A stretch of 5,244 bases of DNA, taken from a virus. Taxonomy: Duplodnaviria > Heunggongvirae > Uroviricota > Caudoviricetes. The notes under the pieces were generated by a model, which was not told the origin of the DNA, did not search any database, and saw only the letters and a program-made list of their open reading frames with translations. Made by a program: the position numbers and the translations under genes. Numbering within the stretch: position 1 is the stretch's first letter; each line of letters opens with the position of its first letter. Shown one piece after another: positions 1-3,028 of the stretch. The stretch is from the IMG/VR virus record IMGVR_UViG_2703718777_000003, positions 1 to 5,244 of that record; one strand, 5' to 3'.

Positions 1-144
1 CAGTACCAGCACCTGAATCCGCGATTATCCCATATACCTACTCGCTGATTGCCCCTCCGCACAGGGGGATTCACCATGCCAGTTTCTTTTAACAAACTCC
101 CCGCAAACCAGACAACAGTCAACCGCCTGAATTGTGAGACATTT

Positions 145-170
145 AAAAAAAAGGCCCGCAAAAGCGAGCC
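145..170 (-). terminator. Intrinsic terminator immediately downstream of the tRNA-like gene
   Basis: On the minus-strand RNA: 7-bp GC-rich stem (GGCUCGC/GCGGGCC, one G-U pair) with UUUU loop (plus 153-170), followed by an 8-U run (plus 145-152 is AAAAAAAA). On the plus strand the stem has a C-A mismatch and no T-run, so it is minus-specific. Confidence 0.6.
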
Positions 171-184
171 AGGGAAAATAAGTG

Positions 185-260
185 TGGCGCGTTGTACTGG
201 ATTCGAACCAGCGACCTGGCGATTATGCGTCGCTCGCTCTCACCACTGAGCTAAAGGGCC
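185..260 (-). tRNA. tRNA-Ile2/Met-like (anticodon CAU) gene, possibly a pseudogene: cloverleaf body intact, acceptor 3' strand non-complementary
   Basis: Reverse complement of 185-260 reads GGCCCTT-TA-GCTC-AGTGGTGA-GAGC-G-AGCGA-CGCATAA-TCGCC-AGGTC-GCTGG-TTCGAAT-CCAGT-ACAACGC-G-CCA. D-arm, anticodon arm and T-arm (GGTTCGAATCC) are canonical and the 5' two-thirds resembles E. coli ileX as I remember it. But the 5' acceptor strand GGCCCTT cannot pair with the 3' strand ACAACGC (2 of 7 pairs), and position 33 is G rather than the near-universal U. Encoded CCA is present. Confidence 0.55.
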
Positions 261-269
261 GGGAGCAGA

Positions 270-298
270 ATAATAACGGTCCGTAATTAATTCCGCAA
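270..298 (-). promoter_or_regulatory. Candidate sigma70 promoter for the tRNA-like gene
   Basis: Minus strand TTGCGG (298-293), 17-nt spacer, TATTAT (275-270); the -10 lies about 10 nt upstream of the tRNA 5' end at 260. The -35 is weak (3/6). Sequence-only prediction. Confidence 0.3.
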
Positions 299-322
299 TA
301 AAAAACCCGCTCAATGGCGGGT
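296..322 (-). terminator. Intrinsic terminator downstream of the ORF6N gene
   Basis: Minus-strand hairpin ACCCGC-CATTGA-GCGGGT (plus 305-322) followed by TTTTTTATT (plus 296-304). The plus strand lacks a T-run after the stem. Confidence 0.6.
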
Positions 323-418
323 TCTGGTAAAGTTCATGCGCTTGGTTCGCCTCGCGATACAGCTTTGCGAAGCATACAGGAATTGAAGCAGTTTATGTGC
401 AAAAATGCAAGAACTTTT

Positions 419-1000
419 TTAAAGCTGCATCAACCTTTCCACCAGTTTATCTCTGCGAACAACAAACCAACCATTGGCTCTCGCCAGTTCCAGCCATGAC
501 TCAAGGGAAATAACAATATCATCATCCCGTAACTGAATTGTGGAAACAGTGACACCGCCTCTCTGATAACAGAGAACTCGCGTGTCGTAACTTTTCTGGC
601 ATGAAACTGGCGCTGACGGATCCTTTTGTCTGAAATAGCAGTCTTCCAGCTTTTCGAACACATCCCACGCCTGATCGGTTTCCAGCATTTTGGCATGACG
701 GGCTGCTCCGCGTTCTGTCCAGAGGATGAGGGAGCGGGCTTTCGGGGAAATTTGTAACCCTCTTAAAGATGGTTGCAAATTTTGTGAGTAGTTTAAAGCT
801 ACCCGCAAATTTTTCAGGGCATCGCCAGCCACTTTGAAAAAATGCTTTCCTTCAATAAAGCGCTCAGCATTTCTGGCGTAGTTATTTTGAATGTTCTTAA
901 CTCCAGCACCGTACAACTGCGCCAAAAGTTCGGTGGTAATAACAGGAATCTGGTTATGGGTGATCGGGGAGAGAGTTTCAACAGAAATTTGAGTTGTCAT
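419..1000 (-). CDS. ORF6N-domain protein (phage antirepressor-like, DNA-binding N-terminal domain; C-terminal about 90 aa unassigned)
   Basis: 193-aa ORF with ATG at 1000-998 and SD GAGGG 7 nt upstream (AGAGGGCGTCATT-ATG); stop TAA at 421-419. The N-terminal region (ITTELLAQLYGAGVKNIQNNYARNAERFIEGKHFFKV ... ISPKARSLILWTERGAARHAKMLETDQAWDVFEKL) fits the ORF6N pattern (L-YG...N..RN..RF.EG..FF ... tErGa) from memory, not from a search. Confidence 0.8.
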   Translation of the reverse strand: MTTQISVETLSPITHNQIPVITTELLAQLYGAGVKNIQNNYARNAERFIEGKHFFKVAGDALKNLRVALNYSQNLQPSLRGLQISPKARSLILWTERGAARHAKMLETDQAWDVFEKLEDCYFRQKDPSAPVSCQKSYDTRVLCYQRGGVTVSTIQLRDDDIVISLESWLELARANGWFVVRRDKLVERLMQL

Positions 1001-1011
1001 AATGACGCCCT

Positions 1012-1116
1012 CTGGTGGTTTCTAAACCATCACCACCGTCAGGTTCCTAATCATCGGGTGGTGAGACGTACAGGGTTAGGAACTACCGGGAAACCAACCG
1101 GCGAGCTTTTCAGCTC
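1012..1116 (-). repeat. Repeat-rich structured leader: nested inverted repeats with pseudoknot-type topology plus a GAAA-tetraloop hairpin
   Basis: Plus-strand arms: TCACCACC 1030-1037 with GGTGGTGA 1057-1064; GTTCCTAA 1043-1050 with TTAGGAAC 1076-1083 (interleaved S1a-S2a-S1b-S2b); GGTGGTTT 1014-1021 with AAACCATCACC 1025-1035 abutting the SD; GAGCT-TTTC-AGCTC 1103-1116 (GAAA loop on the minus RNA). Confidence 0.5.
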
Positions 1117-1160
1117 CCCCATACGCCCCACCATAATTCAGATGTGCGCGTGCATACGAC

Positions 1161-1186
1161 AATAAAAAACACGCTCGCGGCGTGTG
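1161..1186 (-). terminator. tR'-like intrinsic terminator downstream of the Q-adjacent promoter
   Basis: Minus-strand RNA has a 6-bp GC-rich stem (ACACGC/GCGTGT, plus 1169-1185) with a 5-nt loop, followed by UUUUUUAUU (plus 1161-1169). It lies about 80 nt downstream of the predicted start site. Confidence 0.55.
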
Positions 1187-1247
1187 TCTGTCGCGGTCTC
1201 TATCCGGGGTTCCTAATCCCGACGCCAGATTTTGCTGGCGCGTGAGG

Positions 1248-1277
1248 AATATAGCCCCGGATAACAGATTGAGTCAA
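1248..1277 (-). promoter_or_regulatory. pR'-like late promoter; the -35 overlaps the Q stop codon
   Basis: Minus strand TTGACT (1277-1272), the same -35 hexamer I recall for lambda pR', then a 17-nt spacer to CTATAT or 18-nt to TATATT (1254-1248). The Q TGA stop (1276-1274) lies inside the -35. A short GC hairpin (CGCCAG/CTGGCG, 1222-1241) sits in the initial transcribed region. Confidence 0.5.
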
Positions 1278-1828
1278 CAGACAGTTTTTAAATACCCGGA
1301 AGAGAATGCATCACGCATCGGCAGATAGAGCATATATTCAGCAAGATTTAGCCATACATCTACCCGACTGCAGCACGTCCGAAAACACCACTCAGGGTGT
1401 GCATCATTTAGCAATTCAGCCATTTTGCGCTTACTCATCCCCCGCCCTTCATATCTTTGCCGGAGGATACAAATCAATCCTGGGTGTTCTGCCAGCACTT
1501 CACTAATCACCCGATCAATGCATAACGCCTCTGCATCAGTACAATGCACCAGCCAGCTTTTTTGCTTGCCGTTGATCATATCCCGCAAAAAAGCCTCAAG
1601 TTCAGGTTTGTCCAGACCTGCTTTTTTCATCCTCCGGAGCGCCTCATTAATTGCCGTTTTTGTTAGCTTTTTAGAGGTCAGCAACTGGTTAAACATATTT
1701 CCCGTCTTACCGCCGCCAATATACGACCAGCGCCCCCACATACGTAGTTTTCCCTGAATCCAGACACTTTCCAGCGTGGTGAGACGAAGGTGTTCTCCGC
1801 TTTTTCCTGTATTCGTTGGGTAAATCAT
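1274..1828 (-). CDS. Putative late-gene antitermination protein Q (lambdoid Q-like, 184 aa)
   Basis: ATG at 1828-1826 preceded by a strong SD (GGAGAAAGGAGGGATATTT-ATG). The start overlaps the upstream gene's stop as ATGA. The protein has a WGRW segment and C-terminal Cys cluster (EWCFRTCCSR) resembling Q21-type antiterminators from memory. Position after the DUF1364-like gene and directly before a promoter/terminator pair is the classic Q context. Confidence 0.65.
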   Translation of the reverse strand: MIYPTNTGKSGEHLRLTTLESVWIQGKLRMWGRWSYIGGGKTGNMFNQLLTSKKLTKTAINEALRRMKKAGLDKPELEAFLRDMINGKQKSWLVHCTDAEALCIDRVISEVLAEHPGLICILRQRYEGRGMSKRKMAELLNDAHPEWCFRTCCSRVDVWLNLAEYMLYLPMRDAFSSGYLKTVC

Positions 1829-2115
1829 AAATATCCCTCCTTTCTCCAGATTTCTTGTGTGCGAAAAACACCTTCTGCATGCATCAGGCGTAATTCTTCT
1901 TTGGTGTAATCGCCGGTTTTTACCCGCCCGTCGATTAAATCGTGGCACGAGCTACAGGCAATCGCTGCCTGCATATCGTGTGGCTTTATCGCTGTTCCGC
2001 ACGTTCCCGCCAGTCGGTAATGCGCCAGCACAGACGTTTCGGGATTGTGATTGCAGTAGCCAGGGATTCTGACCTGGCACATCTGGCCCCGCGCTGCTTT
2101 ACGTAAATCCACCAT
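1825..2115 (-). CDS. DUF1364-family protein (YbcO-like putative nuclease with Cys/His metal-binding motif)
   Basis: 96-aa ORF MVDLRKAARGQMCQVRIPGYCNHNPETSVLAHYRLAG...IACSSCHDLIDGR, closely matching my recollection of E. coli DLP12 YbcO. ATG at 2115-2113 with SD GGAG 8 nt upstream; overlaps the upstream stop (TAATG) and the downstream start (ATGA). Confidence 0.85.
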   Translation of the reverse strand: MVDLRKAARGQMCQVRIPGYCNHNPETSVLAHYRLAGTCGTAIKPHDMQAAIACSSCHDLIDGRVKTGDYTKEELRLMHAEGVFRTQEIWRKEGYL

Positions 2116-2773: not shown

Positions 2774-2947
2774 TCATTCCCGAATCACCTTGAAACCGAG
2801 CCTTTCAAGATATTCAATGAATGCCTCGATAGATAAAATTACATGATTATCAGGGATTAACGTTGCGTAGATAACTTCCCCATTCTCAACGCGCACAGCA
2901 TAGAGGCCATTTTCACTAAAAATTTCACGCAATTCTTCGATTTTCAT
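2774..2947 (-). CDS. Small hypothetical protein (57 aa), not in the supplied ORF track
   Basis: Hand translation of the minus strand gives MKIEELREIFSENGLYAVRVENGEVIYATLIPDNHVILSIEAFIEYLERLGFKVIRE. ATG at 2947-2945 with SD GGAAGGA 8 nt upstream; TGA at 2776-2774. It sits about 75 nt downstream of a predicted promoter and 59 nt upstream of the DUF1367-like gene. Confidence 0.55.
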   Translation of the reverse strand: MKIEELREIFSENGLYAVRVENGEVIYATLIPDNHVILSIEAFIEYLERLGFKVIRE

Positions 2948-3028
2948 CAACAGAATCCTTCCAGATAAATAGCACTCCCCTGCTCGGGGTCCATCCCTCT
3001 TCTCCCTGCGCGCTACTTAAGTGCATCG

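Follow-up and report, generated by a model that had tools for sequence, protein, structure and literature searches.

A chimeric ileZ-argO tRNA-like gene in a lambdoid prophage, very probably a pseudogene formed by deletion within the ileZ-argN-argO cluster

Results and Discussion

Genomic context of the locus

The window analyzed here, by which the whole stretch of 5,244 nucleotides is meant, comes from a lambdoid prophage and is read here on the minus strand. In that direction, the order comprises an Ea22-like gene, DUF1367, YbcO, a Q-like antiterminator (DUF1133/Phage_antitermQ; 1274-1948, minus strand), an isrK/C4 module, ORF6N, a terminator, a chimeric tRNA-like gene, a second terminator and an STnc100-family sRNA, the Q-like gene being located upstream of the chimera. 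Within the isrK/C4/c4-a1b1 RNA module (1054-1254, minus strand), Rfam matches were obtained to C4 antisense RNA (67 bits), isrK (69.4 bits) and the c4 a1/b1 target element (47.8 bits), and the adjoining ORF6N antirepressor-like ORF occupies 419-1000 on the same strand. Taken with ORF6N, the module looks like the c4-ant type of P1/P7 or the IsrK type of Gifsy-1, inserted between Q and the tRNA site, and it is absent from the otherwise homologous loci L003, L018 and L022. The STnc100-family sRNA is represented by its 5' part (1..108, minus strand; Rfam RF02076, 52.2 bits), which lies directly downstream of the old argO terminator and runs off the end of the window. In a 2026 STnc100/Pas preprint, STnc100 is linked to PasD prophage sRNAs. 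In the carrier genomes, the genes next downstream are DUF6645, holin, lysozyme and terminase, which is the usual place of the phage tRNA cluster. The locus lies between Q with its terminator and the late genes, and its flanks are homologous to those of loci L002, L003 and L004, as for the cluster itself; in place of three separate tRNA genes, a single fused remnant was found.

Regarding the signals around this remnant, a promoter-like element (270..298, minus strand) can be read from the sequence as TTGCGG (298-293), a 17-nt spacer and TATTAT (275-270), ending 9 nt before G1 of the tRNA-like gene. The preliminary description had pointed to this element, which is visible in the sequence but was not called by the consensus promoter scan, its -35 hexamer matching at only 3 of 6 bases. 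The TATTAT hexamer is kept in all flank haplotypes, whether the deletion described below is present or absent. In the Stx2a phage Sp5, a promoter upstream of the phage tRNAs has been reported, and the corresponding position has a mapped primary transcription start (PMC7547250). Downstream of the gene, an intrinsic terminator (145..170, minus strand) consists of a hairpin at 170..153 followed by U8 at 152..145, with an energy of -13.8 kcal/mol and z = -4.0, which bears out the strong terminator seen earlier; the same element follows the intact argO in L002. Upstream of the gene, a further hairpin of the intrinsic-terminator kind followed by a U run (302..325, minus strand; -13.1 kcal/mol, z = -4.7) is present, as it is upstream of the intact ileZ in L003 and L004. 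The terminator scan did not list this hairpin. It sits where tR' is expected and would, by its position, correspond to tR'. A short RNA comparable to StxS, started at the late promoter and ended at the 302-325 terminator, might come from the 75-120 nt preceding this hairpin. The Rfam search of 145-300 gave no match to an sRNA family. The gene had been described as carrying its own promoter and terminator; both elements are present, but they and the upstream terminator are the inherited outer flanks of the old three-gene cluster and not an acquisition of the remnant.

Layout and structure of the tRNA-like sequence

The tRNA-like sequence is 76 nt long and extends on the minus strand over window positions 260..185, inside the span 145-298 noted earlier. 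From 260 down to 185 it reads GGCCCTT-TA-GCTC-AGTGGTGA-GAGC-G-AGCGA-CGCATAA-TCGCC-AGGTC-GCTGG-TTCGAAT-CCAGT-ACAACGC-G-CCA. Its identification as a chimera (185..260, minus strand), here read as a tRNA pseudogene, derives from base-by-base comparison with the intact ileZ and argO of L003, together with a local Rfam match at 254..195. On the minus strand, the 5' acceptor strand GGCCCTT (260-254) is followed by the D arm GCTC/GAGC (251-236), the anticodon stem-loop AGCGA-CGCATAA-TCGCC (234-218) with the anticodon CAT, the variable loop AGGTC (217-213), the T arm GCTGG-TTCGAAT-CCAGT (212-196), the 3' acceptor strand ACAACGC (195-189), G73 (188) and CCA (187-185). The D, anticodon and T arms with their conserved loops are canonical, with an Rfam posterior probability of 1.00 over positions 7-64, and the sole non-standard pair within the arms, A27/C43, occurs in intact ileZ as well. 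As had been noticed, the acceptor strands do not match: only two of the seven pairs are possible (G1-C72 and T7-A66), compared with 7/7 in both parent genes. The unexpected G at position 33 was likewise confirmed. It lies at window position 228 (minus strand) in the anticodon loop and constitutes a second lesion, the corresponding base being T in every intact ileZ examined.

ARAGORN, one of the tRNA finders that had been proposed as a check, reported 0 tRNAs in the whole window and 3 in the intact cluster, and offered no alternative cloverleaf boundaries. Other boundaries were likewise sought in 22 carrier loci, where ARAGORN found none, and folding of the chimera with its flanks did not form an acceptor helix. 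The 5' GGCCC could pair only with the 3' arm GGGCC of the terminator, a pairing that the minimum-free-energy fold does not pick. The Rfam tRNA model (RF00005) matched the chimera locally, over model positions 7-64 only, at 37.3 bits, a score above the gathering score of 29; the full-length scores in the intact cluster were 72.5 for ileZ, 58.2 for argN and 70.1 bits for argO. The minimum free energy of the 76 nt was -24.6 kcal/mol, no better than that of shuffled sequences (z = -0.97), in comparison with -33.5 kcal/mol and z = -4.0 for ileZ. When set against a functional bacterial tRNA, therefore, the sequence possesses the arms and lacks the 7-bp acceptor stem, U33 and detection by ARAGORN. 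It also departs from phage ileZ when followed along the whole gene, since AAGGGCC and A73 are replaced by the 3' strand and discriminator of argO.

Parental genes, junction and deletion

Two intact loci, L003 (O55:H7 CB9615) and L002, were read as references. Their cluster contains three genes, ileZ (GGCCCTTTAGCTCAGTGGTGAGAGCGAGCGACTCATAATCGCCAGGTCGCTGGTTCAAATCCAGCAAGGGCCACCA), argN (anticodon TCG) and argO (GCGTTGTTAGCTCAGCCGGACAGAGCAATTGCCTTCTAAGCAATCGGTCACTGGTTCGAATCCAGTACAACGCGCCA; anticodon TCT), all of which are detected by ARAGORN; the names are those used in the phage records 933W (AF125520.1), Min27 and Stx2a_1447. Positions 1-55 of the chimera are those of ileZ (tRNA-Ile2, CAU) apart from T33G, while its last 27 nt are the 3' end of argO (tRNA-Arg UCU), 7 nt being common to both parental stretches. 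The segment certainly derived from ileZ (217..260, minus strand) covers tRNA positions 1-44, that is, the 5' acceptor strand, the D arm, the CAU anticodon arm and A44; it equals ileZ of L003 and L002 except at position 33 and is unlike argO at most positions. The argO-derived 3' end (185..204, minus strand) comprises the remaining T loop and stem, ACAACGC, G73 and CCA, and runs on into the downstream flank of argO. Between the two, CTGGTTC (205..211, minus strand), common to the T arms of ileZ and argO, is the likeliest crossover zone, G212 being of the ileZ type and G204 and T196 of the argO type. The outer bounds are given by window positions 217, the last certain ileZ base, and 196, the first certain argO base. 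Alignment to phage tRNA genes, the route suggested earlier for finding the breakpoint, thus places the crossover between 217 and 196 and most simply at 211-205.

The flanks lead to the same point. Window 1-216 shares 99.1% identity with the argO side of L002, window 197-420 shares 95.1% identity with the ileZ side of L003, and the flank alignments to the two cluster ends meet only in the T arm, at window 197-216. In intact clusters the T arms of ileZ and argO are 174-176 bp apart, and what is absent from the chimera locus is the 3' end of ileZ, all of argN and 50 nt of argO, 174-176 bp in total. When window 100-360 was compared by BLAST with 5426 complete E. coli genomes, matches were obtained in 3275, most of them partial or in two pieces over the annotation “tRNA-Ile | tRNA-Arg (x2)”; against intact clusters, the two pieces took up approximately 370 bp of record for 200 bp of query. 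The missing partner of ACAACGC is GCGTTGT, the 5' strand of argO, which has been deleted here. It had been proposed that a partner of the form GCGTTGT...ACAACGC might be present elsewhere in the host genome; the partner is instead the third gene of the same cluster. The chimeric junction suspected in the preliminary description is hence confirmed as a chimera, but not as the product of site-specific recombination with a host-genome partner, as the deletion of 174-176 bp is internal and the argO flank is intact. Another of its suggestions, that a phage tRNA belonging to the ileZ/argN/argO group beyond Q had decayed, was essentially right, as the locus is a remnant of that cluster downstream of a Q-like gene.

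Several variants of the cluster were encountered. Strain M15 (match H190) has an argO variant with G49, which would lengthen the microhomology between ileZ and argO. In a prophage of the pig ETEC/O139 strain O139:H1 W13-16 (L026, 2468-2777), the cluster is Ile-Thr-Gly and the T loop of ileZ is TTCGAAT, which would also lengthen it. Rare variants of these two kinds (argO G49; ileZ TTCGAAT) could widen the common stretch to 12-15 nt. An ileZ with the TTCGAAT loop, giving a homology of 15 nt, was considered as a parent and is probably not the one, the single copy examined, that of L026, being situated in an Ile-Thr-Gly cluster. In L004 (O157:H7 F7508; 2890-2985, minus strand), ileZ is intact, argN is degenerate and not annotated as a tRNA, and argO is a variant with a different T arm. 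The members of the ileZ-argN-argO cluster decay independently in different prophages.

Distribution and alleles of the chimera

For the survey of genomes, a 43-nt junction query was built such that intact ileZ or argO could not seed a match. The chimera was found in 162 of 5426 complete E. coli genomes (3%), in every case on the chromosome and with at most two copies per genome, and the carriers are mostly STEC of O157, O121, O111, O145 and O45. With a 55-nt query including position 33, the identity was 100% in each of the 162 genomes. In IMG/VR, a scan for the exact pattern revealed 21 loci with the junction, G33 being present in 21/21, and two of these copies (L008 and L017) have, in addition, A in place of a D-loop G that corresponds by its position to G18. 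In 22 loci bearing the chimera, ARAGORN detected no tRNA at all. Among 50,697 phage records the junction occurred in none and the intact cluster in 279, and the exact-junction scan of one genome per GTDB species gave no match. Within the limited literature that could be searched, no published description of an ileZ-argO fusion was found.

The junction and G33 are completely linked. An intact ileZ with G33 was not matched at 99% identity or above among 3064 records, and a chimera with T33 was not seen among the top matches of the search, in the 162 genomes or in the 21 IMG/VR loci. The surroundings of the chimera are more variable than the chimera itself. Upstream flank haplotypes (A/B/C) and downstream ones (1/1'/2) are combined around it in at least four ways, and the gene architectures number at least three: next to the isrK-ORF6N module, immediately following a DUF1133 Q gene, and following a different Q gene and a DNA methyltransferase (O157:H7 TW14359). 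The carrier genomes listed contain 4-12 other loci that match this region.

Annotation of the chimera in public genomes

In RefSeq, PGAP calls the chimera a 71-nt “tRNA-Met” (255..185 in RM8352) with no pseudogene flag, and this label was found on every listed match across the 162 carrier genomes, with NZ_CP028110.1 1671112-1671182 and NC_013008.1 1752662-1752732 as examples. The call begins at tRNA position 6, positions 1-5 being left out, and consequently contains no acceptor stem. This looks like a systematic mis-annotation. Because RefSeq thereby records an ordinary tRNA-Met, the number of tRNA genes and any inference on codon supply are slightly off for the carrier prophages.

Proposed origin and fate

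The evidence above argues strongly for a chimeric tRNA pseudogene created by short-homology deletion in an ileZ-argN-argO cluster, an explanation that we regard as very probable. The ancestor would have been the ileZ(CAU)-argN(UCG)-argO(UCU) cluster downstream of Q in lambdoid or Stx-type phages. In this cluster, the T arms of ileZ and argO would have provided the short direct repeats (CTGGTTC, or at most 12-15 nt in the rare variants) for a loss of approximately 175 bp, by which ileZ was deprived of its 3' acceptor strand, argN disappeared entirely and argO was cut back to its T arm. Slippage or short-homology recombination between direct repeats of 7-15 nt about 175 bp apart is the mechanism that we propose. 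With the beginning of ileZ thereby attached to the end of argO, GGCCCTT now faces ACAACGC and cannot pair. A further change, T33G, would have affected the anticodon loop.

A transcript of approximately 115 nt, extending from the old tRNA promoter to the old argO terminator, is probably still made. With its acceptor helix absent, such an RNA would be expected to undergo neither RNase P maturation nor TilS modification, charging or delivery to the ribosome. From its structure and from established tRNA biology, the chimera is almost certainly non-working as a tRNA, since RNase P, TilS, the aminoacyl-tRNA synthetase and EF-Tu would have no acceptor helix to recognize, the discriminator is wrong, and G has replaced U33. 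In particular, lysidine modification by TilS and charging by IleRS are expected, on established knowledge, to fail because the identity pairs of the acceptor stem are gone. Loss of the tRNAs would be tolerated in the carriers, buffered by the several other matching prophage tRNA loci that these genomes hold, so that the rare-codon tRNA cluster appears dispensable where several other copies of the locus are present.

A single origin of the chimeric allele is most likely, since every copy has both the junction and G33. The allele may subsequently have spread between co-resident lambdoid prophages by recombination, with crossovers in or next to the invariant tRNA sequence. Such spread into different flanks would need crossovers within identity stretches of roughly 30 nt, which is a point against it. 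The extra D-loop change in L008 and L017 fits continuing decay. The junction together with G33 provides a clean, datable marker allele, by which the exchange of segments between lambdoid prophages can be seen, apparently with crossing over at the invariant tRNA sequence.

Alternative explanations

Some observations stand against reading the locus as a pseudogene. Across flanks that have diverged, the 76 nt hardly vary at all. Purifying selection would be one reading of this, although the parental genes vary as little and the allele may simply be young. Both terminators and the promoter-like element have stayed intact, so that an RNA is probably made. Finally, Rfam, with a score above its gathering score, and PGAP still call a tRNA.

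In line with the third suggestion of the preliminary description, a tRNA-derived RNA with another role, the transcript might have been co-opted as a regulatory RNA, either as an Hfq-binding sRNA or sponge acting through the argO 3' trailer and its U-tailed hairpin or as a decoy for tRNA-binding or tRNA-cleaving proteins, and be kept by selection. Besides the intact signals, this reading would accord with the transcription start mapped at the homologous position in Sp5 (PMC7547250), with the identity of the sequence in 162 genomes and in viral contigs across different flanks, and with the surroundings, a late-region “moron” site rich in Hfq-bound sRNAs (STnc100/PasD and anti-sRNAs). Every one of these features is, however, inherited from the parental cluster and needs no new function. 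Furthermore, the fold is no better than shuffled (z = -0.97), 2 of the 21 IMG/VR copies are changed at a normally conserved D-loop position, and the allele is rare, being carried by 3% of genomes and absent from all phage records searched. Co-option in this general sense is consequently judged quite improbable. Its more specific form is very doubtful, namely that a tRNA-like body and the U-tailed hairpin of the argO trailer make up a stable transcript of about 115 nt, co-opted in STEC prophages with G33 kept for the new role. If true, co-option would explain the invariance of the chimera across prophage backgrounds; it is not needed for this invariance or for the retention of promoter and terminator, because recent origin and inheritance already explain both. 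The main value of the locus is one of annotation and bookkeeping, and a new biological question would arise only if the transcript were co-opted.

As to how the junction itself was formed, a tyrosine integrase acting at att-like sites in the tRNA T arms, or the scar of an element integrated at a tRNA 3' end, may also be considered. The crossover does fall in the symmetric T stem-loop, which is reportedly a classical integrase target in tRNA genes, and the common stretch of 7-15 nt is too short for efficient RecA-dependent recombination. Against this, a single cluster accounts for both halves and both flanks, no foreign sequence separates or adjoins them, neither an integrase nor a second copy of a tRNA 3' end is present in the window or among the neighboring genes of the carrier loci, and short direct repeats approximately 175 bp apart are typical substrates of slippage or short-homology deletion. 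Both sides of the junction being contiguous cluster sequence, the locus does not have the composition of an attachment-site scar, and we consider an integrase origin highly unlikely.

That the chimera is a working tRNA-Met or tRNA-Ile2 with unusual boundaries, or its mismatch an artefact of sequencing or assembly, has a negligible probability: the unflagged 71-nt PGAP call and the 37.3 bits against a gathering score of 29 speak for a tRNA, but that call starts at position 6 without the acceptor stem, of which only 2/7 pairs are possible, ARAGORN rejects the sequence, and G33 replaces a near-universal U33, while an artefact is ruled out by the identical junction with G33 in 162 complete, finished E. 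coli genomes and 21 IMG/VR viral contigs.

Comparison with known systems

As the product of a deletion, the ileZ-argO fusion belongs to a familiar class, that of tRNA pseudogenes and hybrids arising by deletion between neighboring tRNA genes. Tandem tRNA arrays undergo deletions and unequal crossovers between neighbors, for example the tyrT su3 duplication in E. coli. As there, recombination between similar, directly oriented tRNA sequences takes out what lies between them, and a single hybrid gene remains; unlike there, the genes involved are different isoacceptors that share only the T arm, and the result is a non-pairing chimera and no working tRNA. In comparison with the ileZ-argN-argO cluster of 933W, Min27 and Stx2a_1447, the site is the same, downstream of Q and its terminator and upstream of DUF6645 and the lysis and late genes, with the same flanks, whereas the chimera is one fused, non-pairing gene that is shorter by 174-176 bp, carries the extra T33G and is invisible to ARAGORN.

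The CAU anticodon of the ileZ-derived part is also that of the chromosomal ileX (tRNA-Ile2), and the early 933W record Y10775.2 labels the phage gene ileX. The CAU anticodon of ileX reads AUA after lysidine modification by TilS, which needs the pairs C4-G69 and C5-G68. Unlike ileX, the chimera has lost its acceptor helix, and its discriminator is G, from argO, not A. A further likeness is found in the glyW-cysT-leuZ operon, whose 3' external transcribed spacer, 3'ETS-leuZ, works as a sponge for sRNAs. Downstream of the chimera, too, the trailer of a tRNA operon has been kept, with its terminator hairpin and U tail; the likeness bears only on the speculative reading of co-option.

Mosaic structure of the window

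Contigs encoding the Ea22-like and ORF6N proteins of the window share parts of it and not the whole mosaic, and the chimera was present in 0 of the 6 Ea22-like loci scanned (L028-L033). No complete E. coli genome covers at least 80% of the 5244 bases at a single site; the highest coverage is 78%, in four pieces. Segments of the window occur separately in many STEC prophages.
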